Below, in pieces: positions 1 to 12,268 of a stretch of DNA of 12,268 nucleotides (position 1 is the stretch's first letter; each line of letters opens with the position of its first letter). The stretch is from Candidatus Izemoplasmatales bacterium (lineage in GTDB: Bacteria; Bacillota_I; Bacilli_A; Izemoplasmatales; Hujiaoplasmataceae). The notes under the pieces were generated by a model. That model saw nothing but the letters and a program-made list of their open reading frames with translations, ran no database searches and was not told where the DNA came from. Both the position numbers and the translations under genes were made by a program. The stretch covers positions 1-12,268 of the forward strand of contig JBFXGX010000022.1 in assembly GCA_050177605.1 (NCBI GenBank), written 5' to 3'.

Positions 1-386
1 GAGAGGATGCTGGCGGAACTGTTAATATGGCATCTGATTTACATAATTTAAAACCATCAAATCCAACAGTCAATTCAAACCGTGGAAATAAGTATTATGA
101 TAACATTGATACCGCAGCAAGTTTTGAACCAAGAGATGAAGTCAAAGGTGATATCGCAAGAATCTTATTTTACATGATGACAATGTATGATGTATTAAAT
201 CTAGTCAATGGTACACCATCAGTTCATCAAATGGGAAAATTAAGTGTCTTACTAGAATGGAATGATTTGGATCCAGTCGATGATTTCGAAAGAGCAAGAA
301 ATGAAGCCATCTTTGGATTCCAAAATAATCGTAATCCATTTATTGATTACCCTGATTTTGTCGATCTAATCTTCGATAACCTATAA
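1..386 (+). CDS. Endonuclease I family (His-Me finger, Bsn/EndA-like) nuclease, C-terminal fragment; 5' end lies outside the window
   Basis: The frame is open from base 3 (EDAGGTVN-MASDLHNL...), so ATG27 is probably internal. The motifs SDLHNLKPS, VNSNRGN, FEPRDEVKGDIARILFYM, LLEWN.LDPVDDFERARNE.I and QNNRNPFIDYP are typical of Endonuclease_1. The catalytic REH(V/I)WP motif is expected just upstream of the window. Stop is TAA at 384-386. Confidence 0.92.
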   Translation, partial: EDAGGTVNMASDLHNLKPSNPTVNSNRGNKYYDNIDTAASFEPRDEVKGDIARILFYMMTMYDVLNLVNGTPSVHQMGKLSVLLEWNDLDPVDDFERARNEAIFGFQNNRNPFIDYPDFVDLIFDNL

Positions 387-400
387 TAAATATTTAAATG

Positions 401-436
401 AAAAGTGGAGGCCAAATGGCTTCCACTTCTTTTTTT
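401..436. terminator. Probable bidirectional intrinsic terminator between convergent genes
   Basis: Stem AAGTGGAGGCC (403-413) pairs with GGCTTCCACTT (418-428), with one G-U pair on the + strand and a 4-nt loop. A T7 tract follows at 430-436 on +, and A4 at 401-404 gives a shorter U tract on -. Confidence 0.85.
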
Positions 437-2321
437 ATTCTACTGTATGTGAACCAAGTCCGGTTGCGCTATCTTTTGCATATGAATCCCATTCAAGAGT
501 AGGGTCAAATGCGTCGTAAGGATCGGTATCCCCTGAAGTAACTGAGCCTTTTCTAATTAATGTTACATCTGAACCAAACGTTACATCAACTCCAATTTGA
601 CCAATACTATCAATAATTACATCGTTATGTAACAATACTAATGGATCATTTCCATTAAAATTGATTACTGATTTAGTGGTATCAAAAATATCGATTTCAG
701 TATATATTGTAGCGTCCGATCTAGAAATTACCACGACTTCGCCTGGTGCTATTGTTCCAGATAATGATAGATTCTTAATACTTGTATCTAGCGTTCCACC
801 ATTTATATATAAACGTAATACGTATTCGCTTAAATCCTTTGTCTCTGCTGTAGGGTTATAGATTTCGATATATTTGTTATAACTACTTCCTTCAACATAT
901 TGAGAGATAATCAGGTCTACACCTACTGTGCCACCTGTTGCTCTTACGGTCACAGAAGTTGAGACAACTTGTGATAAATCACCAACATGGATTGTTACTG
1001 ATACTGTGCCAGTAACATCTGTTCCTTCAGGACGTACTACAGTAAATGCAGATCCATCGAAAGTTAAATAACTTGTTAACTCACTAGAAATTGTAACATC
1101 TGAATAAGTACCTTTTGTAATTGTTGGAAGTGCAAAAGCATCTACTACAGTATACGTTGAATCTACTTGAGATACATATAATGCTAGTTGTTCTGCATCT
1201 GTTAAGGATGTTGCATCAACATCATTAGCAGTTCCATAGAAATAACCATACCAATCACCATGAGATGAATGATAACTATAAAGAATAAAGTCAATTGTCA
1301 CTACTTGATTTTGGAAAGCAGCAATGACTTCCATATCACTCTTGTAATAAACACGAATAGCATCTGTTGTTGTTAAGTTTAACGTAACTGAGGTATCATA
1401 ATCTGTTGGAACTAAGTAAACACCATAATTACCTAAACTAGAATCAACATAAACCTTTGCTGTTAAATGATAAAGTGTATATTCCATTGGAGCTGTATCA
1501 GATGGTGCTACTCTTCCATCTAACGCTTCTGATACTGTAGCCGTAACATAAGGTAGATCAGCTGCTGCAGCACTAGAAGGAACGGCTGTTAATAAATTAT
1601 CTCCATTATTTGCTAGTTGTGGTGCGCCATAGTAATACACAAACTCACCAGTAATATCATAGACTGAACCGACTTCAATATCTGACATAATCGTGCTTCC
1701 AGCATATCCATTATCAAAACCATACATGATATCAACACCGTCTGTGAAGAAGAACCCTGAATAGATGTCTTCTCCATATGCAGGTACGATTTCCACAATT
1801 GTCATTGCTTTGTATGTTACATAGATGCCAACGCCTAGCGCGATACCTTCCGCGATCGTTGTTACACCTGATGATTCATTGGTTGCTTGAACGCGTAATG
1901 TATAATCTTTAGAATATGTTTCTGTTCCGTAAGTAAACACTCCCGTGAGAACTACAGTAGTATCTCCATCTGCTTCAGAAGGTCTTACAACAGTAATTTC
2001 AAACCTTAAAGCGCCGTCAACGTCAACTGCGTATTCTCCAACTTGAATCACATTTGTGTTATTGCTAGACCAAGTTACCGTGGCAATACCAACTTCTGCT
2101 GGAACTGTAAATCCAGCAACTAAACTATCTGCATTTGAAATGATTACCATATTTGCGGCTTGCTCTAATTGTTGTTGAATAGATGAACCTGAAGTTGTTG
2201 TCGTTGTAGTATCACTGGACTCTACAGAGGATGTTACTGTTGTAAAATCTTCTTGGCATGCAGTGAATGAAAATGCGAATAAAACCATTAAAATCAATAA
2301 AAAGAACTTTTTGAATTTCAT
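435..2321 (-). CDS. Surface lipoprotein, 628 aa: Ig-like, paired OB-fold-like, Ig-like and C-terminal lamin-tail domain (LTD); no catalytic domain recognised
   Basis: Start reassigned from 2354 to ATG at 2321 because GAGGGAG lies 8 nt upstream and MKFKKFFLLILMVLFAFSFTAC is a signal peptide with a lipobox. A Thr/Ser linker follows. The C-terminus LIISQYVEGSSYNKYIEIYNPT...FNGNDPLVL...IDSIG...DVTLIRK...GLGSH matches the LTD type found in ExeM/NucH-family nucleases. Clear paralogy to the 1341-aa neighbour. Confidence 0.85.
   Translation of the reverse strand: MKFKKFFLLILMVLFAFSFTACQEDFTTVTSSVESSDTTTTTTSGSSIQQQLEQAANMVIISNADSLVAGFTVPAEVGIATVTWSSNNTNVIQVGEYAVDVDGALRFEITVVRPSEADGDTTVVLTGVFTYGTETYSKDYTLRVQATNESSGVTTIAEGIALGVGIYVTYKAMTIVEIVPAYGEDIYSGFFFTDGVDIMYGFDNGYAGSTIMSDIEVGSVYDITGEFVYYYGAPQLANNGDNLLTAVPSSAAAADLPYVTATVSEALDGRVAPSDTAPMEYTLYHLTAKVYVDSSLGNYGVYLVPTDYDTSVTLNLTTTDAIRVYYKSDMEVIAAFQNQVVTIDFILYSYHSSHGDWYGYFYGTANDVDATSLTDAEQLALYVSQVDSTYTVVDAFALPTITKGTYSDVTISSELTSYLTFDGSAFTVVRPEGTDVTGTVSVTIHVGDLSQVVSTSVTVRATGGTVGVDLIISQYVEGSSYNKYIEIYNPTAETKDLSEYVLRLYINGGTLDTSIKNLSLSGTIAPGEVVVISRSDATIYTEIDIFDTTKSVINFNGNDPLVLLHNDVIIDSIGQIGVDVTFGSDVTLIRKGSVTSGDTDPYDAFDPTLEWDSYAKDSATGLGSHTVE
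438..918 (-). other. Lamin-tail domain (LTD) within the 628-aa lipoprotein
   Basis: Sequence DLIISQYVEGSSYNKYIEIYNPTAETKDLSEYVL...LSGTIAPGEVVVI follows the LTD consensus. Boundaries are approximate. Confidence 0.85.
1371..1422. repeat. Paralogous segment shared with 5361-5412 (VYLVP.DYDTSVTL.LT)
   Basis: 47 of 52 nt identical by manual alignment, offset 3990. This is the best-conserved part of a longer homology between roughly 1220-2140 and 5210-6100. Confidence 0.85.
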
Positions 2322-2352
2322 TGTACTAACTCCCTCATTATAATGTATTATC

Positions 2353-2361
2353 ATTATAACA
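2353..2361 (-). promoter_or_regulatory. Putative extended -10 promoter (TGnTATAAT) for the LTD lipoprotein gene
   Basis: The minus strand reads TGTTATAAT at 2361-2353, about 30 nt upstream of ATG2321 and downstream of a terminator. No good -35 is present. A second TATAAT at 2342-2337 abuts the RBS. Confidence 0.55.
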
Positions 2362-2404: not shown

Positions 2405-2447
2405 AAAAAACAAGAAAAAAAGGCATAGTTTATCGCTATGCCTTTTT
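2405..2447 (-). terminator. Intrinsic terminator ending the ABC-nuclease-scaffold operon
   Basis: Perfect 12-bp inverted repeat AAAAAGGCATAG (2417-2428) / CTATGCCTTTTT (2436-2447) with a 7-nt loop. On the minus strand it runs into TTTTTTTCTTGTTTTTT and begins about 27 nt after the stop at 2475. Confidence 0.9.
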
Positions 2448-2474: not shown

Positions 2475-5400
2475 TTAAGATTGTGGTGCTTGATAGATTT
2501 TAACAGTATCGATTGTTAATTTTGCTTTATCAACTGTTGTAGTAGGGACAACTTGAGTAAATTTAATATATACACTACCAGTAGCGTTAATTGTATATGT
2601 ATATTCTGTAGCAGTAGTTGATAATGTAAATACTTGTGCATTTCCCCATGTAGTTCCATCTGAAGAATAAGAAACTTCTACATTATATCCAGAGGCAGAG
2701 TTATTAGCTGTGAATACAACTCTTGTAACATCTGTGACCGAGAATAAAGTAATGAAAGTTGGAATTACACTATCAGAAACATAATCTCTACCTTGCAAAG
2801 AAATTGAACCAGCCAATGGACCAGTAGTTGAAGGTGTTCCAGATAATACACTCCATTGATGATCCACTGGGCCTAAAGTATTTGGAGTAGTATTGTTATA
2901 AGTTGTGGTAGCAGTAAATCCATCAGCAACTTCAAAACCTGTTTCATAAGCTAACACATCTGTAGACGTATCCGCAACACAAGAAATAACAAAGTCATGA
3001 GTTAATGTCTCAGTACCATAAACGAATGTACCAGTTAATGTAACATCTGTAGTAGCTGTTAAGTTTGTAATATCAACAGCACCAGTTGTAGAGTTAATCA
3101 CTGTTTCATTGTTTGAAGCCCAAGTGATAGTTACACCATATGCAGCAGCTGGCAATGTTAATGTTGTATCAGAAGTAATTGTAGCCGCGAATGATTGTGC
3201 ATTAATTGCAGCTTGAACCATTTGTGCGTCTGTAGCTTCAAGAACGAAAGCACCAACTTTAAATTGAACGCTATTATCGATTTGAGAAGTTTCAACATTA
3301 TAAATAGCGAATGTAGCTGCTGGTAAGATATCTCCAACTTGATATAATTGGTAAACCCAAGGAACAAAGTCAGTAATATAAGTCTTTAAGTATACATTAG
3401 CGCTAGTACCAGTTACTTTAAACACATAAGATGAGGAAGAAGCTGAGTATACTTCTAATCCTGTAAATGTAACTAATTTTCCACCATTATCTCCTGTTAA
3501 AGCAACAATTTCATCTGCTGTTAATGGGAAATATGTGTAAGTATTACCTGTAGATACTGTAAGTTTTAACGTAGCTGTTTTAACCATTTGTTTAGCACTG
3601 TGGTAGCTTCCTAAAGTTCCACTTACTAAAATTTGGTCTCCAAGAGTTGAACCGAAATATCCATATAAGAAGAATCCGTTTCCTGCTGCATCTTGTAACC
3701 AAGTACCATCATATGAACCTCCGATTGCTGCAACAGTACCTTGTACATATAATGCAACACCATCAGTCATTGCTGGAATGGTAGAGAAATCAGTTACAAC
3801 AGTAATTGCTGAAACAGCGATTGTGAAATCTTTTGTTTGAGCAACTTCGCTTCCTAATGTGAATGTAGCTGTTAAAGTTACATCGAAAGCTGCGCCTGAA
3901 TAACCGATTGCTAAGGAACCATCAGTTAACACTGCGTTTCCTGTATTAAGTGCCCATGCAACTGCTGAACCTTTAGGACCAACAACTGGTAAAGTCACTG
4001 TATCATATTCTGAAGCTGTTGTAGGAACAACTAAGTTAGCTACATCGTATGCTAATTTTTGAGCATCTGTAATTGCTTTTGCAGTAACATTTACGACAAC
4101 GTCTTTTGTAACATCACCTAAAGTTAAAGTGAATGTCACTGTACCAACAACATCTGTACCTTCAGGAGCAACGAATGTCAATCCTGTAGCTGTAGCCGTT
4201 ACGTTAGCAGCTAATTCTGTAGAAACAGCAGCTGTAACTGTCGCATATGCTAATGTAGGGAATGTATAATCGCCTTCAAGAACGAGTGTTGCAGGGATTT
4301 GGAATGCATCGAAATCAACTTTTTGAGCATCCGTTGGAGCTGTTGTAGTGATTTCATCTTGAGTTTGCCATAATAATTGTGGTGTACCTTTATAAACGCC
4401 AACAGCAATACCAGTAAAGCTTACTGGTTGACCAACAACGAATGAAGATACAAGTGTATTAATTGCTGCATAATCAACAGCATACTTGTCTATACGAAGT
4501 TGTAATTCTGTTGTTCCATCAGTTAAGTAAACAGTATATGAAGCTACTGTTGTAGGTACTGAAGGAGCTGTTTTAACATATAATCCAGAGATATCAACTA
4601 ATTTACTTACAGATGCAAGTAATGTAGTAAGATCAGATCCTACAACAGTTACATTTGCAGGAAGTGTGTTTCCTGTAGAAACTAATGTAATATTAGCAAC
4701 TGGAGAAACTTCCATAAGATCATTGTAGTTAACCATTTTTCCTTCAACTTCAACTTTATTACCAACAACTAAAATGTCAGCATAAGTAGCAATTGAACCT
4801 AAATAAAGATAAACTGCGCCAGTTTCATCTTGAACATATGCGTTATTACCATTTAATTGTGTAACAATACCTTGGAATTTAACTGTATTATTTACATTTG
4901 CAATTGCAGTTGCGATATCCGTTACTGGAGTTTCTCCAACTTTAACTGTAAATGTCTTTGTATCAGTAACATCACCTTTTGTAGCTGTAACAGTGATTGT
5001 TACAGTTGCTTGTGCAGTAAGACCTGTTAAGTCAACAGCACCAGTTGTAGGGTTGATAACTGTTTCATTATCTGAAGCATAAGTTAATGTTACACCGAAT
5101 ACAGAAGCTGGGAAGTCAATTGTCGTTGCTTCTAAAACTTCTGAAGGTACAACTAATCCATTTAATGCTGCAGCTACTGCGTCAGCATCGCTTGCGAATG
5201 CAACTGTAATATCGTTTGTTGTTCCAAAGAAGAATCCATACCAATCAGTATGTGTTGTATGATATCCAAATAACATAAAATCTAAGGATACAACTTGACC
5301 TGCAACTGCTCTAACTGCATCGATATTTCCTTGATAGTAAATACGAAGCGCTGGAGTCGCTGTTAAGTCTAATGTAACTGAAGTATCATAATCAGCTGGA

Positions 5401-6500
5401 ACTAAGTAAACATCATATCCACTTGAAAGTTCTGCGCCAACATATACTTTAGCAGTCACTGTGAACATTGTATAAGCAACGTCACCATTTGCTGCTGGAA
5501 TGCTTCTTCCATCAAGTACCTGTGCTACTGTAGCTGCAGTTGTTGGATAATCTACTGCTGCTGCAGTTGATGGAGCAACTTTCACTACGTTAGAACCATT
5601 AACATCAAGTTCTGGAGCGAAATAATAATATTTTAAGCTACCTGTAACATCATATACATTACCTACGACAACTTGACTAACTAAAGAAGCACCGTAAGCA
5701 TACATAATATCTGTTCCATCAGTAAAGAAGAATCCGTTTGTTCCAACGCCAAATACTGTCATACCTTGGTAAGTAACGTATTCGCCAACACCAAGAGCCA
5801 TACCTTCAGCGATTGTTGTAACTTTTGTAGAGCCTTCTTCTGCTAATACACGGATTGATTTTGTTACTGTACCAGAAGCATCACCATAAGTGATTGTACC
5901 AGTTAAAGTAACAGATGTATTCACACCACCGTCATCAGCGTTAGGTCTTGTAACAGTCACAACATAGTTTCCATCACCATTCACTTCTGTTGAAATAGAT
6001 ACAACATCAGTATTTGATGAAGCCCATGTAATTGTAGCGCCATCAACTGTTCCAGGTAAAGTGAACCCTTCTGTGATTTGGTCAGAGCCATCAATGATAA
6101 CTTTTGCACCAACTCTTGTAAAGAACGCTGTAGCAGCTTCAGCAGATACTGTCACTGTGAACGTCTTTGTTTCAGATGCATCATTTAATGTTGCTGTAAC
6201 AGTTAATACTACTTCTTGATCACCTTGAACGAGAGTAGGAACTGTAATCACACCACTATTTGATACAAATGCTGTGTTAGAAGAAGACCAAGTTACTGTA
6301 ACACCATCAGTTGTAGGTGCTGGTAATGTTAAGTCCGCAACTACTGCTGAAACATCACCTAAGTCAATACTAGCAAGTACTGCTTGAACTTTTTCAAGAT
6401 CCGTTGCTTCTTCTGAAGTAGTAGGATTACATCCAACTAAACCAAGTAGGAATAAGCTAACGAATCCTAGGAAAGCAAATTTCTTTAAAAATAACTTCAT
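2475..6500 (-). CDS. Large modular surface lipoprotein, 1341 aa: about six Ig-like repeats interleaved with three paired OB-fold-like modules, plus a C-terminal beta-sandwich
   Basis: RBS AGGAGGA at 6511-6505 and lipobox LVGC. Ig-like repeats follow the pattern (L/F)TLP...G.T(V/I)TW.S.N...V.LT.T.T......K.F.V.V, resembling the atrophied bacterial Ig family. OB-like units such as VKFQGIVTQLNGNNAYVQDETGAVYLY...VGNKVEVEG.MVNYNDLMEV resemble YhcR/ExeM-type OB folds. The protein is very rich in Thr, Val and Ala. Confidence 0.85.
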   Translation of the reverse strand: MKLFLKKFAFLGFVSLFLLGLVGCNPTTSEEATDLEKVQAVLASIDLGDVSAVVADLTLPAPTTDGVTVTWSSSNTAFVSNSGVITVPTLVQGDQEVVLTVTATLNDASETKTFTVTVSAEAATAFFTRVGAKVIIDGSDQITEGFTLPGTVDGATITWASSNTDVVSISTEVNGDGNYVVTVTRPNADDGGVNTSVTLTGTITYGDASGTVTKSIRVLAEEGSTKVTTIAEGMALGVGEYVTYQGMTVFGVGTNGFFFTDGTDIMYAYGASLVSQVVVGNVYDVTGSLKYYYFAPELDVNGSNVVKVAPSTAAAVDYPTTAATVAQVLDGRSIPAANGDVAYTMFTVTAKVYVGAELSSGYDVYLVPADYDTSVTLDLTATPALRIYYQGNIDAVRAVAGQVVSLDFMLFGYHTTHTDWYGFFFGTTNDITVAFASDADAVAAALNGLVVPSEVLEATTIDFPASVFGVTLTYASDNETVINPTTGAVDLTGLTAQATVTITVTATKGDVTDTKTFTVKVGETPVTDIATAIANVNNTVKFQGIVTQLNGNNAYVQDETGAVYLYLGSIATYADILVVGNKVEVEGKMVNYNDLMEVSPVANITLVSTGNTLPANVTVVGSDLTTLLASVSKLVDISGLYVKTAPSVPTTVASYTVYLTDGTTELQLRIDKYAVDYAAINTLVSSFVVGQPVSFTGIAVGVYKGTPQLLWQTQDEITTTAPTDAQKVDFDAFQIPATLVLEGDYTFPTLAYATVTAAVSTELAANVTATATGLTFVAPEGTDVVGTVTFTLTLGDVTKDVVVNVTAKAITDAQKLAYDVANLVVPTTASEYDTVTLPVVGPKGSAVAWALNTGNAVLTDGSLAIGYSGAAFDVTLTATFTLGSEVAQTKDFTIAVSAITVVTDFSTIPAMTDGVALYVQGTVAAIGGSYDGTWLQDAAGNGFFLYGYFGSTLGDQILVSGTLGSYHSAKQMVKTATLKLTVSTGNTYTYFPLTADEIVALTGDNGGKLVTFTGLEVYSASSSSYVFKVTGTSANVYLKTYITDFVPWVYQLYQVGDILPAATFAIYNVETSQIDNSVQFKVGAFVLEATDAQMVQAAINAQSFAATITSDTTLTLPAAAYGVTITWASNNETVINSTTGAVDITNLTATTDVTLTGTFVYGTETLTHDFVISCVADTSTDVLAYETGFEVADGFTATTTYNNTTPNTLGPVDHQWSVLSGTPSTTGPLAGSISLQGRDYVSDSVIPTFITLFSVTDVTRVVFTANNSASGYNVEVSYSSDGTTWGNAQVFTLSTTATEYTYTINATGSVYIKFTQVVPTTTVDKAKLTIDTVKIYQAPQS
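3073..3152. repeat. Internal Ig-module repeat, copy A (partner at 5032-5111)
   Basis: An exact 19-mer TCAACAGCACCAGTTGTAG occurs at 3073-3091 and 5032-5050, with continued similarity beyond it. Protein: PAAAYGVTITWASNNETVINSTTGAVD versus PASVFGVTLTYASDNETVINPTTGAVD. Confidence 0.85.
5032..5111. repeat. Internal Ig-module repeat, copy B (partner at 3073-3152)
   Basis: Same match as copy A. The offset of 1959 nt is in frame. Confidence 0.85.
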
Positions 6501-6525
6501 AATTTCCTCCTATGTTATATTTTAT

Positions 6526-8001
6526 TTATTCAATTACTATGTCATCGCCGTTTGTAAGCATTAGTTGATAATTGCCCTTTAAGTATACATACGTTTCATA
6601 ATTATTATCATAGTTGAAATCGTAATAACTTAATGGTCCAGTTACTGTAATCTTACTTCCGACGGTAATACCTAAACTACTAATATCAATACTACTTGAA
6701 TCATCAACGCGTACAACAAATGAATTGTTGCTTGCGTCTTTAACATAGATGCTTGTTGAACCAGATGTTGCCGCAACAGAAATCGATGTAACTGTTAAGT
6801 TTTCCATTGTGACAAGAGATCCAATTCTTGTGAAATCAAAATCGTTATAAGTAATCGTAATCGGTTCGGCTACGAACTCACTATCCCATAAACTTAAATT
6901 AAGCTTATTGAAATTTGAAAGTTGCGGTGAACCACTGTAGTACGTAGGAATAAGTCCTCCAATAGAGACGTGCGCTCCTACTTGTAATTGTGCTGACGTT
7001 GTAAAGCCTGCATACATATATACTCCATAGCCTGTTTCATCTTGGATATAAATGTTTTGTCCAATCATCCTTGTAATAACGCCTGTCACAACGACTTTTA
7101 ATCCAACATACTCATTGAAATTAGCGAGTAGGTATTCAATGGACATTTGTGTTCCTTCTTTTGAATAATCAAAGTTAGGATCAATTTCACCCCAAACTCT
7201 TCTTTTGGTGAGGGAAGCATCCCAGTCAGCTAAAGTAAGAATTTGAGTATATTTACTACCGATAGCTACTTTGTTTTTAGAATAAGCAAGTTCTACGAGT
7301 TCAAGGTTCAGTAACAAGAAAGTATCTCCACCTTCTGGAATGTACCATACCCAAGCAAGGTAACGTCCGTTTCCGTCTTGTCTATCGCCTTCAGCTTGTA
7401 AAACAATCTTTTCAGCGGTGCTAAGACGTTCACTTGTATACTTTGATGCGGCTTTTCCCCATGGTTCGTATAGTGCTGTAGATTCTGGGGTATCAATTCC
7501 TAAATAACGAACAGAGAAGGAAAATCCATTACTATCAAACATGGTTGTATCACCATCGACGTATTTAGAAACTGTAACTTCTCCGATACCATCGGCGATG
7601 AATTCTTTATTTGCATAGTCAGCGGTAGTTAATTGAATACTATTGCCTTCACTATCCGTATAATCGCCTAGTTCATATAGATATTTCAGTTCTAAAGTTA
7701 ATGGGGATGTATATACCCTTACTTCTGTCCCTTTTGGAACGCTGTTTCCAGCTACGAGCCCAGACCCATATGATACGAACTTATCGTACTCATCGTCACT
7801 CTCATAAATCTTTGTAGTATCAATGTAAAATTTTACAGTGAGATCTAAACTAGTTAATGTGTCACTGATTTCTACTTGACTCATGCCAGTAAGATCAGGT
7901 AACACTGCGTTTAAATCTTCGGTAGTGGTGGTTGTTTGTGTACAACCACCTAAGAAGATCATGAACGCAAATAATATTGAAATAGATATTTTCTTAAACA
8001 T
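6526..8001 (-). CDS. Thermonuclease (staphylococcal nuclease family) lipoprotein, 491 aa, with an N-terminal PASTA-like domain and C-terminal paired OB folds
   Basis: Lipobox LGGC followed by a poly-Thr linker. The SNase motifs VDGDT, VRYLGIDTPE, DGNGRYLAWVW, LNLELVELAYS and KRRVW retain the Ca-binding and catalytic Asp/Asp/Arg/Asp/Glu/Arg set. VLPDLTGMSQVEI...AGNSVPKGTEVRVYTS resembles PASTA. The C-terminal VVVTGVITRMIGQNIYIQDETGYGVYMY...QVGAHVSIGG is OB-like. Confidence 0.92.
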   Translation of the reverse strand: MFKKISISILFAFMIFLGGCTQTTTTTEDLNAVLPDLTGMSQVEISDTLTSLDLTVKFYIDTTKIYESDDEYDKFVSYGSGLVAGNSVPKGTEVRVYTSPLTLELKYLYELGDYTDSEGNSIQLTTADYANKEFIADGIGEVTVSKYVDGDTTMFDSNGFSFSVRYLGIDTPESTALYEPWGKAASKYTSERLSTAEKIVLQAEGDRQDGNGRYLAWVWYIPEGGDTFLLLNLELVELAYSKNKVAIGSKYTQILTLADWDASLTKRRVWGEIDPNFDYSKEGTQMSIEYLLANFNEYVGLKVVVTGVITRMIGQNIYIQDETGYGVYMYAGFTTSAQLQVGAHVSIGGLIPTYYSGSPQLSNFNKLNLSLWDSEFVAEPITITYNDFDFTRIGSLVTMENLTVTSISVAATSGSTSIYVKDASNNSFVVRVDDSSSIDISSLGITVGSKITVTGPLSYYDFNYDNNYETYVYLKGNYQLMLTNGDDIVIE

Positions 8002-8019: not shown

Positions 8020-9636
8020 TTACCAAGTTAATTGGTTAATCATAAAGCTTAAAGCTTGTTCTGGTGAATAAGTATCTGTATAGATATTTTCTAAACAGTA
8101 TCCTGCTTCAACACGAGCTGTCGCAGAACCAGCACTATTTGTTCCAGCTGGGAATGCTGGGTCATATTGGTAATAATCCACTTGGTTTTTAGCGATATTC
8201 GCAACCATTGAACTATATAAATAATCCCATCTTTCATCTGTTGCGCCCCAAGTAACTTGTCCATCAGCAGCCCAGAAATCTTGTGCGATTTGTAAGAAGT
8301 CTGCGTATGTTGTAGAGAAAGTTTGAGTTAATTGGATAGGAGCTTCAGAAGTATAAGCAGATAAACGAACTGGTAAGTAACCTGTACTCATTGCCCATTT
8401 AGCTGTGTTATCTGTATCAAGAAGATATTTGATGAATAACCAAGCATATAATTTTTCAGATGAAGAAGCATTAGAGAAGATACCAATGTTTGGACCTTGT
8501 TGAACTGCTGATAAAGATCCTGTATAAGTATTTCCACCTGCTGTGAAAGTTGCGCCTTCTTCGTCAACGAATTGAGGTACTTGTAAGAAGTCAACATCGA
8601 AAATACCAAGTTGTAAGCTTTCTTGTGGGTCAGCTGCAGTAGGAATGTTATAAGAAACACCTGCTGTAGATCCAACAGTCATACAAACATCACCATATTT
8701 GAAGTTTGTAGAACCATAAGATTGATCCCAAGCGATTGGTAATACGACTGTATTTGATTGATATAATGTATCTAAGTAAGCTAACATGTTTCTAGTTGTT
8801 GTATTATCAATTAAGATTTCACCATCAGAATTAGTGTATCCAGCATTCCATTGACGACTCATATTGATAAATAAGTTACCACTTGAATCATAGTTAAGTA
8901 AGTATTCACATTTCATTGTTGTAGCATTCGTTCCATTTGTATCAACTAAAATATTTGTTAATAATTGTAATTGATCATAGTTTAATGGAGTTTCATGTGA
9001 TAAGAAACCATTGTCTGAAATGGTGATTCCAGCTGCTCTAATTTCTGCTACATGTGCTGCAAGAACACTTAAGTTTACAGCCATTGTTTCAGTTGATTTA
9101 GAGTAAGGCACTGAATAATAGTATCCACCAGGATATTGGTTATTTTCTTCTAAGTAAGAGCCAACAAAATCATCTAAATCTAATGAAGTTGTAACAGTTT
9201 GCCCGAAGATTGATGATGATGCGTTTGTCACTTCATACACTTTATCACTATTGATAAATTGATCTAAAGAAACTACTGCACCAGCAGTAATATAACCTGC
9301 AAAGTGATCAGGGTATCCAAGAGCCATTGTAGGAACTTGGTTTACAGAAATACCCATATTAATTTTTTCTCTTAAAGTATTGTAATCACTTTGAGATGTT
9401 GAGGTAATCGTAACGTTTGGATACATTGCTTCAAAATTCGCAATAAGTTGATCCAATAATTCTGTTTTCCCAGCACCATAGATATGCCAGAATGTAATTT
9501 CAACGTCTTCGTCTGGAAGTTCGTCTGCTAATTGTACAGTTGTCGTTGTTGTGGATTCAGTTGTTCCAACGTTAACGCAACCAACTACAGTTAGGCCAAG
9601 AATTAAAGCTAATAAACTAAATAGTATTTTTTTCAT
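8020..9636 (-). CDS. ABC transporter substrate-binding lipoprotein, family 1 (UgpB/sugar-type), 538 aa
   Basis: RBS AGGAGGA at 9647-9641 and lipobox VVGC. Motifs: EITFWH, FEAMYPNVTI, YYSVPYSKSTE, GSTAG, QGPNIGIF, AWLFIKYL...NTAKWAMSTGYLPVR.SA. Adjacent to the permeases. Confidence 0.92.
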   Translation of the reverse strand: MKKILFSLLALILGLTVVGCVNVGTTESTTTTTVQLADELPDEDVEITFWHIYGAGKTELLDQLIANFEAMYPNVTITSTSQSDYNTLREKINMGISVNQVPTMALGYPDHFAGYITAGAVVSLDQFINSDKVYEVTNASSSIFGQTVTTSLDLDDFVGSYLEENNQYPGGYYYSVPYSKSTETMAVNLSVLAAHVAEIRAAGITISDNGFLSHETPLNYDQLQLLTNILVDTNGTNATTMKCEYLLNYDSSGNLFINMSRQWNAGYTNSDGEILIDNTTTRNMLAYLDTLYQSNTVVLPIAWDQSYGSTNFKYGDVCMTVGSTAGVSYNIPTAADPQESLQLGIFDVDFLQVPQFVDEEGATFTAGGNTYTGSLSAVQQGPNIGIFSNASSSEKLYAWLFIKYLLDTDNTAKWAMSTGYLPVRLSAYTSEAPIQLTQTFSTTYADFLQIAQDFWAADGQVTWGATDERWDYLYSSMVANIAKNQVDYYQYDPAFPAGTNSAGSATARVEAGYCLENIYTDTYSPEQALSFMINQLTW

Positions 9637-9678: not shown

Positions 9679-10611
9679 TTATCCCTTAATACCACTTCTT
9701 GAAACTCCGCGCATGATTTGTTTTCTAAACACGAAGAATACAAGTAATAATGGAAGTGTTACAAGTACAGCAGCAGCCATTTGTTGACCGTAGTCTGTAC
9801 GTCCTGTGGATGTATCTGTGAACGCACCACGAAGACCATTACTTACCAATCGATATTTATCGTTGGTTGTTACCATTGCTGGCCAGATATATGCACTCCA
9901 TGCGCCCATTGCATTTAAAATAATGATGGTAATAATTGTTGGAGCGGCTACCGGAACCATAATTTTTGTTAAATATTTAAAATCGCTTGTTCCATCCACT
10001 TTAGCTGCATAATAAAGTTCGTTTGGAATTTGTTTAAATGTTTGTCTTAAATAGAAGATGTAGAATACACTCACCATAAATGGAATCGTCATTGCGAGAA
10101 TTGCATCCATATAGGTTTGGTCAAGGATGGAGTACCATCCAAACTTATTAATCGTTAAGAAGTTTGTAAGGATGAAGATTTCTCCTGGTACCATCATTGT
10201 TCCGAGTAGTACCGCGAATAATGTATCTCTACCTTTAAAATTAAGTCTAGCGAAAGCAAAAGCAGAAAGAATGGTTGTAATTGTTGTTCCTGCAGTTGTA
10301 AGAAGTGAAATAAGTAATGTATTTTTCAGATAAGTGAAAAATGGGAATAATGGTTCTCCTGCACGAGGTCCACTTAGTACTGTGACAAATAAGTCAGAAT
10401 AATTACTTAAGTTCCAATCTTTTGGTGACATAAACAAGATTGGTGGAATTGATTCGATTTGCACTACTGTTTTGAATGATGTAAGAATCATCCAATAGAA
10501 AGGAATCAAAATAGAGACTGCCACTAATGCTAAGAAAGTATAAGTGACGACGTTTGAAATCATTTTATTACGTTTATATTTCTTTTCGTTTTCAATAAAT
10601 AGATCAGCCAT
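9679..10611 (-). CDS. CUT1-family ABC transporter permease (UgpE/MalG-like), 310 aa
   Basis: Multiple hydrophobic segments. Motifs PFYWMILTSFK, AFAFARLNFKGRD, TMMVPGE and the EAA loop FKQIPNELYYAAKVDG. ATG10611 is preferred over GTG10617 because GGAGG, which overlaps the upstream TAG, lies 7 nt before it. Confidence 0.93.
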   Translation of the reverse strand: MADLFIENEKKYKRNKMISNVVTYTFLALVAVSILIPFYWMILTSFKTVVQIESIPPILFMSPKDWNLSNYSDLFVTVLSGPRAGEPLFPFFTYLKNTLLISLLTTAGTTITTILSAFAFARLNFKGRDTLFAVLLGTMMVPGEIFILTNFLTINKFGWYSILDQTYMDAILAMTIPFMVSVFYIFYLRQTFKQIPNELYYAAKVDGTSDFKYLTKIMVPVAAPTIITIIILNAMGAWSAYIWPAMVTTNDKYRLVSNGLRGAFTDTSTGRTDYGQQMAAAVLVTLPLLLVFFVFRKQIMRGVSRSGIKG

Positions 10612-10622
10612 AATCACACCTC

Positions 10623-11534
10623 CTAATAATGTACTCTCTTACGAGATACGACACCTTGAATAAGTGAGAAGATGACGGTAATCACGAAGAGGATGATTGC
10701 TGCGGCTGCGGCGTAACTAATGTATCCGACATCCGTATAACTTGAACGATAACGATATACGAACGCAACGATTGTAATCATAGAATATGGCGTAGCACCA
10801 AGTTTTTCACCGAATAACCCAATAACTGAGTTATATGCTTTTAATGCACCAATCATTGATGTGATTGAGATGTATAAAATAAGTGGTGAAAGTAATGGAA
10901 CTGTGATTCTTCTAAATACTGTTGATTTTGATGCAGAGTCAATTTTTGCTGCATCATAATATTGTTTATCAATATTTTGAAGACCACTAGTAAAGACTAA
11001 AATCTTGAATGCTAGTCCACTCCAAATAGTGAAGATGAGCAATGCGCCCATTTGTCCCCACCAACTAGATGTACCACCAATCCAGTTTACAGGATCAATT
11101 CCAAACCATCCGAGGATGAAGTTGAATAAACCGTAATTTTGATGGAACATAAATGCGAATGCCATACCAATGGCGATAGCATTTGTCACATAAGGTAAAA
11201 AGAATACTGTTTGGAAGAATCCTTTTAACTTTGGAATGTTTTTTAAGGCAACACTAATCACTAACGCAATAATGATTGATACAGGAACAGATACAAAGGC
11301 GATAACAAATGTATTTTTCATTGCCACCCAGAACAATTGATCTTTTAAGATTTTTACAAAGTTCATTAAGGTGTAACCTGTCGCTTGTCCTAATCCATTA
11401 TTTGCAAGTGGTTGATAATTTTCATAAACCGAGATGATAAATGCATTAATGAGTGGATAGAAGATGAAGATCCCCATCAGGATCAACAGCGGGGCTAGAT
11501 AAAGCCAGGCCTTTAAATTATTTTTTGTTTCCAT
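10623..11534 (-). CDS. CUT1-family ABC transporter permease (UgpA/MalF-like), 303 aa
   Basis: Motifs AWLYLAP, FYPLI, FW.AMKNT, FFLPYVT, the EAA loop GLQNIDKQYYDAAKID, FRRITVPLLSP and YAAAAAIILF. It starts 1 nt after the ATPase stop. Confidence 0.93.
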   Translation of the reverse strand: METKNNLKAWLYLAPLLILMGIFIFYPLINAFIISVYENYQPLANNGLGQATGYTLMNFVKILKDQLFWVAMKNTFVIAFVSVPVSIIIALVISVALKNIPKLKGFFQTVFFLPYVTNAIAIGMAFAFMFHQNYGLFNFILGWFGIDPVNWIGGTSSWWGQMGALLIFTIWSGLAFKILVFTSGLQNIDKQYYDAAKIDSASKSTVFRRITVPLLSPLILYISITSMIGALKAYNSVIGLFGEKLGATPYSMITIVAFVYRYRSSYTDVGYISYAAAAAIILFVITVIFSLIQGVVSRKRVHY

Positions 11535-11535
11535 A

Positions 11536-12268
11536 TTATTTCAAAATTTTCCCGTTCAAATCAAATAGATGCATCTTTTCAGGTTTAATTGTGAAATGTA
11601 CGTTATCGCCTGCTTTGATTTTGTGTTCAGCATCGACGATTGCTTTAAATGTTGCTTTATCTAATAATCCACCTTCATTACCTGGTTCTTCAATAATAAG
11701 CGTTGTATCTCTACCAATTGTTTCCACTAAATCAATTTCAAAATGGAATGGTGATTTGTTTTCTTTGTCAACTTGGAATCCTTCAGGACGAACACCAACT
11801 TTTACGTTTTGGTCTTCTAATTTTGTCTTTCCAACTTCCATATCATTAATAAAGATTTTCTTGTTTTTTACAACTCCATCAAATACATTGATTTGAGGGT
11901 TTCCTAAGAATTTCGCAACGAATAAGTTTTGAGGATCATCATAAACGGCTTGAGGATTACCCATTTGTTGGATAACACCATCTTTCATAACAACGATTTC
12001 ATCTGAAATTGACATTGCTTCTTCTTGGTCATGTGTTACGAATACTGTCGTAATCCCTGTTTCACGTTGAATTCTTTTGATTTCTTCTCTGGTTTGTAAA
12101 CGAAGACGAGCATCAAGATTACTTAATGGTTCATCAAGTAATAATACTCTTGGTTTCTTAACAAGTGCTCTTGCAATTGCGACACGTTGTTGTTGACCCC
12201 CGGATAGTTCTTTTGGTTTACGATCTAACATTTCTTTTAATCCAACTAGATCAGCCATTTCCGTTGTC
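11536..12268 (-). CDS. ABC transporter ATP-binding subunit (MalK/UgpC/MsmX-like), 5'-truncated by the window edge
   Basis: Signature [15 protein letters not shown], Walker B and D-loop [13 protein letters not shown]-switch VTHDQEEAM, and a C-terminal TOBE-like region (GVRPE...VETIG...HLFD). Walker A is absent and the frame is open to the window end, so M12258 is internal. Confidence 0.95.

Follow-up and report, generated by a model that had tools for sequence, protein, structure and literature searches.

The stretch analysed here (the window) is an entire contig of 12,268 nt, JBFXGX010000022.1, from a 1.94-Mb, 89% complete genome bin of a Candidatus Izemoplasmatales bacterium, and our subject is a lipoprotein of 1341 aa encoded on its reverse strand (the target; Table 1). 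The target consists of a signal peptide with a lipobox, six immunoglobulin-like (Ig) domains of the aBig_2 type, three homologous tandem-OB modules and a C-terminal jelly-roll, and its gene follows those for an ATP-binding cassette (ABC) importer, a substrate-binding lipoprotein and an SNase lipoprotein. We consider it reasonably likely that the target is a non-catalytic, lipid-anchored array which keeps nucleic-acid polymer at the membrane, to be cut by the SNase and by an endonuclease I.

In sediments, extracellular DNA serves as a major source of carbon, nitrogen and phosphorus, and 'DNA-degradation loci' have been described in Ca. Izemoplasmatales (Wasmund 2021, Nat Microbiol, PMC8289736). 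One of these loci encodes a 'large protein' of 1,049 aa (scaffold_255 peg.646), proposed to hold polymeric DNA near the cell during digestion (PMC8289736). We find this protein encoded in locus L097, which belongs to the same named genome bin, Ca. Izemoplasma acidinucleici.

The locus and its gene order

All genes of the window lie on the reverse strand, with the exception of the convergent endonuclease I gene. Since only 25 nt separate the stop codon of the SNase gene from the co-oriented target gene, and a hairpin with a T-run follows the latter, the target looks like the final gene of an importer–nuclease operon, that is, the terminal gene of a conserved operon consisting of ABC importer, substrate-binding protein, SNase-OB lipoprotein and target. 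The N-terminus is a hydrophobic signal ending in ...LLGLVGC, in which the lipobox consensus identifies residue 24 as the lipobox cysteine, and the target is predicted to be a secreted, membrane-bound lipoprotein. A frameshift or gene fusion as the origin of the target was considered and rejected, because the ORF (open reading frame) is continuous, with no internal stop, and orthologues of 919–1973 aa are continuous too.

Table 1. Features of the window (positions counted from its first letter; residues are those of the target)
Feature	Position	Strand	Extent	Evidence or remark
Target ORF	2475..6500	-	1341 aa	ATG start; confirmed real
Shine-Dalgarno sequence GGAGG	6506..6510	-		6-10 nt before the target ATG at 6500; sequence read
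Signal peptide with lipobox L-V-G-C	6429..6500	-	residues 1-24	Cys24; translation
aBig_2 Ig-like domain 1	6126..6428	-	residues 25-125	Pfam PF20578, 1.4e-20
aBig_2 Ig-like domain 2	5835..6125	-	residues 126-222	Pfam PF20578, 1.4e-10
Tandem-OB module 1	5181..5834	-	residues 223-440	hhalign to module 2, 98.1%, E 1.2e-13
aBig_2 Ig-like domain 3	4926..5180	-	residues 441-525	Pfam PF20578, 3.6e-8
Tandem-OB module 2, YhcR-OBF/DUF5689 type	4356..4925	-	residues 526-715	AlphaFold2, Foldseek, sub-threshold Pfam/NCBIfam
Divergent aBig_2-like Ig domain 4	4065..4355	-	residues 716-812	hhalign 96.3-98.4% to five aBig_2 alignments
aBig_2 Ig-like domain 5	3807..4064	-	residues 813-898	Pfam PF20578, 2e-8
Tandem-OB module 3	3231..3806	-	residues 899-1090	hhalign to module 2, 99.6%, E 4.3e-24
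aBig_2 Ig-like domain 6	2967..3230	-	residues 1091-1178	Pfam PF20578, 1.2e-8
C-terminal jelly-roll, galactose-binding-like/CBM-like	2478..2966	-	residues 1179-1341	AlphaFold2, pLDDT 95.4
Terminator-like hairpin and T-run	2417..2447	-		after the target stop codon; marks operon end
SNase lipoprotein: PASTA, SNase, one tandem-OB module	6526..8001	-	491 aa	Pfam SNase 4.7e-8, DUF5689 6.6e-6, PASTA 3e-5
Substrate-binding lipoprotein of ABC importer	8020..9636	-	538 aa	Pfam SBP_bac_8, 5.8e-29
Two ABC permease genes	9679..10617 and 10623..11534	-		Pfam BPD_transp_1
MalK-like ABC ATPase	11536..12267	-		Pfam ABC_tran, TOBE_2; 5' end cut by contig end
Downstream paralogue: lipoprotein with aBig_2, one tandem-OB module, lamin-tail	435..2354	-	639 aa	Pfam LTD, 3e-13
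Endonuclease I gene, 3' end, convergent	3..386	+		Pfam Endonuclease_1, 2.3e-30; cut by contig start

Domain architecture of the target

Every one of the 1341 residues could be assigned to the signal or to an Ig, OB or jelly-roll module. The aBig_2 family (PF20578) reaches 146.7 bits (cut-off 27) over five stretches of the target; the fourth Ig domain gave no match in a segment-wise Pfam scan and was placed by hhalign. The three OB blocks are mutually homologous (hhalign, 98.1%, 95.9% and 99.6%), and the closest paralogue of module 1 is the module of the downstream 639-aa protein. In a phmmer search of Protein Data Bank (PDB) sequences with the whole target, the aBig_2-like region of an arabinanase was matched (5ho0, 2.8e-9) and the rest was at chance level. 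Pfam and NCBIfam found no catalytic family in the target: the NCBIfam nuclease model NF033681 scores 20.6 bits (cut-off 300) with no EEP or SNase domain in the chain, NCBIfam at E≤10 has no match for modules 1 and 3, Ig domain 4 or the C-terminus, and no lamin-tail domain (LTD) is matched by Pfam.

That some block of the chain is nevertheless a divergent nuclease or phosphoesterase seems to us scarcely credible. The supplement of Wasmund 2021 does list a 'C-terminal endonuclease I domain', from CDD, in the 1,049-aa homologue (PMC8289736), but that protein (L097:13227-16430, +) gave no Pfam match to an endonuclease I domain at E≤1e-4 and only aBig_2 (three times), LTD and S1_2; in the target no block is left over for such a domain, and a catalytic Pfam domain occurs in none of the 27 positional orthologues described below.

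A first-pass annotation, made from the letters and their translations, had drawn the ORF as an anchored chain of Ig domains, OB pairs and a terminal beta-sandwich, and this map stands, with boundaries within about 20 residues of the tool-derived ones. Five of the six Ig domains that it drew are recovered by Pfam as aBig_2 and the sixth (716-812) by hhalign (96-98%); the lipid anchor agrees with the N-terminal signal and Cys24 in the translation; and the claim that the chain has no enzyme domain accords with the profile searches, each residue lying in a non-catalytic module.

The tandem-OB module

Module 2 was assigned to a family through several weak matches that agree with one another. By Pfam it scores 25.4 bits on the tRNA_anti-codon OB family (cut-off 27; 1.3e-5) and 23.3 bits on DUF5689 (PF18942; cut-off 28.6; 6.9e-5), the latter over positions 43-213 of the 217 in the profile, and NCBIfam ExeM_NucH, the N-terminal OB of the ExeM/NucH nucleases, weakly matches its residues 12-94 (1.7e-4). 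By BLASTP, target residues 533-697 align with residues 292-455 of the neighbouring SNase protein (28% identity, E 3e-9). A phmmer search of 1.84 billion representatives with module 2 returned 559 matches at E≤1e-3, and four of these homologues score 65.7-136 bits on DUF5689. When the best 37 of the 149 listed non-self matches were scanned with Pfam (E≤1e-4 for DUF5689), DUF5689 was found in 9, LTD in 9 and aBig_2 in 21, with a type-9 secretion tail in 5, so that the module is widely reused in surface proteins. In an alignment of 60 module instances from the window and from the loci of relatives, 14 match DUF5689 (best E 1.8e-8). On these profile matches the homology of module 2 to DUF5689 is transitive, and its sequence places it in the YhcR-OBF/DUF5689 group.

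The AlphaFold2 model of module 2 (190 aa) is a tandem OB, with a predicted local distance difference test score (pLDDT) of 94.3 and a predicted TM-score (pTM) of 0.89. Foldseek against the PDB gave 63 matches at E≤1e-3, led by nucleic-acid binders of tandem-OB type: Teb1 AB (3u58, 9.6e-7), the IFI16 HIN domain (2oq0), RPA (8aaj) and the p202 HIN domain (4l5q, and 4jbm bound to double-stranded DNA), as well as the AIM2 and MNDA HIN-200 domains, POT1 and SSB, several of the HIN-200 structures being complexes with double-stranded DNA; the HIN-domain matches (p202, IFI16, AIM2, MNDA) have E values of 1e-5 to 1e-4 and TM-scores of 0.39-0.46. VIA-align superposes the first OB on an RPA OB (3dm3; Z 12.9, root mean square deviation (rmsd) 1.6 Å over 81 residues) and on the anticodon-binding OBs of Asp/Asn-tRNA synthetases (Z ~12). 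The modules are best conserved in the first OB, at three aromatic positions and at glycines, which include an (I/V)QDxTG turn between its strands two and three; Tyr555, Tyr566 and Tyr592 of the target belong to the conserved residues. In canonical OB folds the turn between strands two and three faces the ligand.

Two further statements of the first-pass annotation are therefore corroborated: the kinship of the second OB pair with that of the adjacent nuclease, for which the motif pairs it quoted are present in both translations and are joined by the BLASTP alignment, and the OB fold itself, for which it had named AlphaFold and Foldseek as the check. Its premise, that OB units of this type usually share their chain with a catalytic domain, is not borne out, since a catalytic domain is found in only three of the 37 best module homologues (subtilase, EEP nuclease and PLD) and in none of the 27 positional orthologues. 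As a separate observation, other proteins combine the tandem OB with a subtilase (in a chain of 2917 aa), with an EEP nuclease, or with a PLD-type domain and a type-9 secretion tail.

The C-terminal jelly-roll

The C-terminal 163 residues were modelled from 24 relatives and form a jelly-roll beta-sandwich in the AlphaFold2 model (Table 1). Foldseek relates this model to carbohydrate-binding modules (CBM4, CBM16, CBM22 and CBM61), reelin, MAM and gingipain adhesin domains; as modelled, the domain is a binding-type fold and not an enzyme. A weak F5_F8_type_C_2 match lies at the target C-terminus (5.8e-4), and R60, F85, S101, D103, W107 and D153 of the 163-aa segment are conserved. The nearest Atlas clusters, Cleaved_Adhesin (0.89) and DUF5017 (0.88), are leads only, and Pfam matched neither family in the 24 C-terminal relatives. 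The domain is sporadic, being present in 20 of 158 genomes of the order and occurring twice in one protein of another genome.

Such a domain invites the idea that the target is an adhesin or binds a polymer other than nucleic acid, its OB and CBM-like domains binding glycans or other matrix polymers and either attaching the wall-less cell to biofilm or detritus or supplying an importer of sugars. The matches of the C-terminal model to carbohydrate-binding and adhesin domains speak for this, as do the weak F5/8-type-C matches in 11 of the 24 relatives, the CUT1 sugar type of the binding protein and ATPase of the importer, the acidity of the protein with its lack of conserved basic residues, and the occurrence of some module homologues beside chitobiase-type domains or subtilase. 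We nonetheless regard it as unlikely, considering that the sequence relatives of the module are the modules of secreted nucleases (EEP, PLD, weakly ExeM/NucH, and the adjacent SNase), that the locus holds two nuclease genes and, by Pfam, no glycoside hydrolase, and that the C-terminal domain is dispensable in the family, most orthologues having an LTD instead.

Conservation of the operon

A homologue of the target is present in 33 of 41 related genomes. Around such homologues 20 loci were fetched from relatives (set 1), and the genes for an ABC substrate-binding protein and importer adjoin in 19 of them, the remaining locus being cut by a contig end; the SNase-OB gene lies directly upstream in 16 and endonuclease I nearby in nine. 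A second set of 80 loci was found by similarity to the substrate-binding protein alone, with no selection for the target, and here an ORF of at least 700 aa with at least two modules occurs in 47 and an SNase-OB gene in 64, many of these loci being cut by contig ends; the two sets probably overlap, so that their counts are not independent. The named records of set 2 are labelled mostly Ca. Izemoplasmatales, then Izemoplasma/Izimaplasma, Haloplasma, Acholeplasma and relatives, and three of its most distant loci (Paenibacillus and two Sporosarcina) have neither a long module ORF nor an SNase-OB gene. Among the positional orthologues, Pfam finds aBig_2 in 27/27, an LTD in the same chain in 18/27 and a catalytic domain in 0/27. 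The number of modules per chain varies over 66 unique ORFs, from one (1 ORF) through two (24), three (28) and four (11) to five (2). The link to nuclease and importer in the role that the first-pass annotation suggested for the protein is thus upheld by the synteny in 19 of the 20 set 1 loci.

The tightly conserved gene order would also suit a protein scaffold or nuclease cofactor, in which the modules bind the SNase, the endonuclease I or the substrate-binding protein, and not the polymer, and organise a surface degradation complex. OB folds can mediate protein contacts, according to the Xds paper, and deletion of the YhcR-like OB region of ExeM and Xds abolishes nuclease activity, their LTD being dispensable, with direct DNA binding not reported in the available text of those studies (PMC6085458, PMC6746945). 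This explanation strikes us as decidedly unlikely: there is no evidence of contacts, no complex prediction having been made; the nuclease carries the same module in its own chain, as would be expected of a common substrate rather than of mutual binding; and a copy number that varies from one to five suits polymer avidity more than it does an assembly of fixed composition.

Proposed function

Returning to the array that holds nucleic-acid polymer, we suggest that the target works as follows. Sec export and lipidation at Cys24, as predicted from the lipobox, would place it on the outer face of the single membrane, where the six aBig_2 domains would act as spacers and the three tandem-OB modules and the terminal jelly-roll would be arranged along a stalk of presumably extended shape. 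Each YhcR-OBF/DUF5689 tandem OB would bind polymeric DNA or RNA with no sequence preference and, since the modules are strongly acidic, probably via base or sugar contacts and divalent cations. Together with the single modules of the SNase lipoprotein and of the LTD paralogue, the three modules here would provide avidity for long polymers, so that the substrate may be retained at the membrane during its cleavage by the SNase and by endonuclease I, the genes of which are co-located with the target. Small phosphodiester-containing or nucleoside products would then pass to the UgpB-like substrate-binding lipoprotein and enter through the ABC importer of the same operon.

Several points weigh against this proposal. 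In the available literature direct nucleic-acid binding is reported neither for the target and its orthologues nor for DdbD, a Bacteroides protein of the DUF5689 family, and the available papers on the related loci and nucleases contain no direct DNA-binding measurement for the tandem-OB module. The OB and DUF5689 Pfam scores of the target lie under the gathering cut-offs, modules 1 and 3 have no Pfam match at all, and the AlphaFold2 models cover module 2 and the C-terminus only, modules 1 and 3 being assigned by profile homology. The two-domain Foldseek TM-scores of module 2 are only 0.38-0.46, because the two OBs sit at a different orientation, and the VIA-align list tests only residues 1-91 of the model, so that for the second OB the support comes from the Foldseek alignments over the full length, from the strand and helix order given by DSSP and from the DUF5689 span. 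OB folds can bind sugars or proteins too, the C-terminal domain resembles a carbohydrate-binding module, the importer is of a sugar/UgpB type, and the target lacks the LTD carried by 18 of the 27 orthologues.

The main caution, however, is charge. The mature target has 44 Lys+Arg and 124 Asp+Glu (net charge about -80, isoelectric point (pI) about 4.05), each of the 60 modules in the alignment carries a net negative charge (median -11), and no conserved basic column is present in the 60-module alignment. The DNA-binding surfaces of HIN and RPA domains are basic, unlike the acidic module here. All four predicted lipoproteins of the locus have a pI of about 4.05-4.3 and a net charge of -31 to -80, and the SNase is net negative in its catalytic part too; since the other secreted proteins of the locus are equally acidic, acidity appears to be no bar to binding. 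This exoproteome may be acidic as a whole, and divalent cations may form the bridge to DNA.

Relation to known systems

The holding role is, in our assessment, plausible and not new, being the one already hypothesised in 2021 for the Izemoplasma homologue. The first-pass annotation knew of no characterised protein of this kind, and the novelty so implied does not hold, the orthologous 'large protein' of Ca. Izemoplasma acidinucleici having been described with the same hypothesis (PMC8289736). The two proteins share their position after the ABC importer and SNase genes, aBig_2 domains and YhcR-like tandem-OB modules, and BLASTP aligns them at 29% identity over 394 aa (E 3.25e-18). They differ in that the known protein is shorter and has two modules (by hidden Markov model) where the target has three, carries in its own chain the LTD that is found here in the separate downstream paralogue, and lacks the C-terminal jelly-roll of the target. 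Within a kind that has been described but is uncharacterised, the target is a variant with three modules, no LTD and a jelly-roll tip; the system was known before, and the first-pass annotation read it correctly without its being new in kind. Further, the cultured Izemoplasma relative X. coldseepsis grows on DNA and induces a similar cluster, in which 'EddB', a possible orthologue of the target, is induced 20-fold (Zheng et al. 2021, PMC8397711). The nucleic-acid locus of Hujiaoplasma nucleasis (PMC10470597) was compared and set aside, its gene content being different.

Outside this order, a close counterpart is DdbD (DUF5689) of the Bacteroides ddbABCDEF DNA-utilisation locus, which has been modelled as HIN-like and proposed as the substrate- or DNA-binding partner of an outer-membrane transporter (PMC12478041), and in Riemerella a DUF5689 protein is essential for natural transformation (PMC8459023). 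Genetics thus links DUF5689 proteins to the use of DNA in the first case and to its uptake in the second. In the available text of the ddb paper there are no occurrences of Izemoplasma or Gram-positive bacteria (PMC12478041). The target resembles B. thetaiotaomicron DdbD and R. anatipestifer RA0C_RS04920 in its DUF5689-family tandem OB with a HIN-like predicted fold; all three are lipoproteins of the cell surface, and their genes neighbour those for secreted nucleases and a transporter. The target differs in bearing three modules on an Ig stalk, where those have a single module, in its sub-threshold DUF5689 score, and in its second domain, a jelly-roll, where Riemerella pairs DUF5689 with a second beta-sandwich, DUF5017. 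No TonB-type gene is present in the window, the neighbours of the target being the ABC importer and its binding protein.

The Riemerella protein suggests that the target might instead be a DNA receptor for natural transformation, capturing intact DNA and passing it to a ComEC-type channel and not to nucleases, and the genome does contain a ComEC-family gene on another contig. We hold this to be highly improbable, since the target gene is co-oriented with the SNase gene and very close to it, stands with the ABC importer and is followed by the terminator-like hairpin, a linkage conserved in relatives; since ComEC lies elsewhere in the genome and is matched in 10 of 14 control genomes too; and since the adjacent nucleases would destroy transforming DNA. 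The ComEC-family gene itself (PF03772, 124.9 bits; G000:C1:49682-50431, -) indicates that a DNA-uptake channel may exist beside the feeding locus.

ExeM (Shewanella), Xds (Vibrio cholerae) and YhcR (Bacillus subtilis) share the OB sequence type with the target, but are enzymes with an EEP or SNase domain in the chain, which the target lacks. The HIN-200 proteins (p202, AIM2, IFI16) and RPA/Teb1 share the tandem-OB fold (Foldseek E 1e-6 to 1e-4; VIA-align Z 11-13 for the first OB), at an identity of only 7-22% and with a different inter-domain geometry (TM ~0.4, rmsd ~7 Å), and these are intracellular proteins that bind DNA via the basic surfaces mentioned above. With no HIN family among the Pfam matches at E≤1 for any target segment, this resemblance is one of fold only. 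SusD/E/F-like roles, which the role suggested here parallels, have been proposed for DdbD and DdbE of Bacteroides, with SusE/SusF as a functional analogy (PMC12478041). Like SusE and SusF, the target is a non-catalytic lipoprotein with several (here putative) binding sites on a beta-sandwich chain, its gene standing with those for surface hydrolases and for an importer that serves the same polymer; unlike them, it has nucleic acid and not glycan as its proposed ligand, an unrelated fold and a single-membrane envelope. Mycoplasmas co-transcribe an SNase lipoprotein gene with the genes of a sugar-type ABC importer, and the lipoprotein is thought to provide precursors of nucleotides (PMC3585158).

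Wall-less Izemoplasmatales are among the specialist consumers of extracellular DNA, and the target family, conserved across the labelled Izemoplasmatales, Acholeplasma and Haloplasma loci searched, is the obvious candidate for keeping a huge diffusible polymer and its digestion products near the importer in a wall-less, single-membrane cell. Wasmund 2021 (PMC8289736) predates the ddb paper (PMC12478041), and the two DNA-feeding systems were described separately. We put forward a tentative generalization, possible rather than probable: that the YhcR-OBF/DUF5689 tandem OB is a general, sequence-independent, cation-assisted surface DNA-binding module, shared by Bacteroidota, in their ddb and natural-transformation loci, and wall-less Bacillota, in their DNA-degradation loci. 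Proteins such as the target would then be the nucleic-acid counterpart of SusE/F, in which Ig-stalk arrays of two to five modules select long polymers by avidity and deliver them to a nuclease with the same module, while interchangeable heads (LTD or jelly-roll) add a second specificity. If the modules bind, DUF5689/YhcR-OBF would gain a function, not only in DdbD but also in the protein that Riemerella needs for transformation and in numerous secreted nucleases; if they do not, a hypothesis in print since 2021 would be overturned.

Neighbouring genes and further observations

The SNase lipoprotein is the sole SNase match in the genome. Its PASTA domain is barely above the cut-off (24.3 bits, cut-off 23.2), and PASTA is found again, with 28.7 bits, in an LTD-SNase protein of an Acholeplasma (L124:9615-11096). 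Because PASTA is a peptidoglycan-related module, its presence in wall-less lineages is odd.

Searched as a profile, the substrate-binding lipoprotein finds its closest relatives of known structure in a 'sugar ABC transporter' binding protein of the 7c0x/7c0f series (9.5e-19), which we take to be a Thermus thermophilus CUT1 protein, and, also among the nearest, UgpB-type binders of glycerophosphodiesters (6r1b, 4mfi). A T. thermophilus CUT1 protein is cited as dinucleotide-binding (U3G; PMC12718374). If the two are the same protein, the substrates of the importer may be dinucleotides or other phosphodiester products, rather than nucleosides.

The downstream paralogue aligns through its residues 34-492 with residues 95-555 of the target (BLASTP, 38% identity, E 6e-98) and matches the NCBIfam ExeM N-terminal/LTD region (4.5e-28). 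Its true start is probably the ATG at 2321 (MKFKKFF..., lipobox SFTAC) and not 2354, as read from the sequence upstream, where GAGGGA, a TGTTATAAT box and the hairpin at 2417-2447 precede 2321. With these elements ahead of it, the paralogue is probably transcribed apart from the target, as a separate transcription unit with its own promoter.

In one RNA-library run of another study, contigs of a relative (~91-92% identical) cover positions 4659-7416 and most of the ABC genes, and one contig of 3114 nt spans the SNase/target junction. This is a weak hint of expression at most, given that the contigs come from a relative, that the library may contain DNA and that a two-gene contig does not amount to a single transcript; the uncovered stretches are likewise no evidence of silence. 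Runs that share only a small part of the sampled words were left aside as indicators of habitat. Near-identical DNA is present in two runs labelled landfill metagenome, at 0.98 (possibly the source run) and 0.72 of the sampled words.

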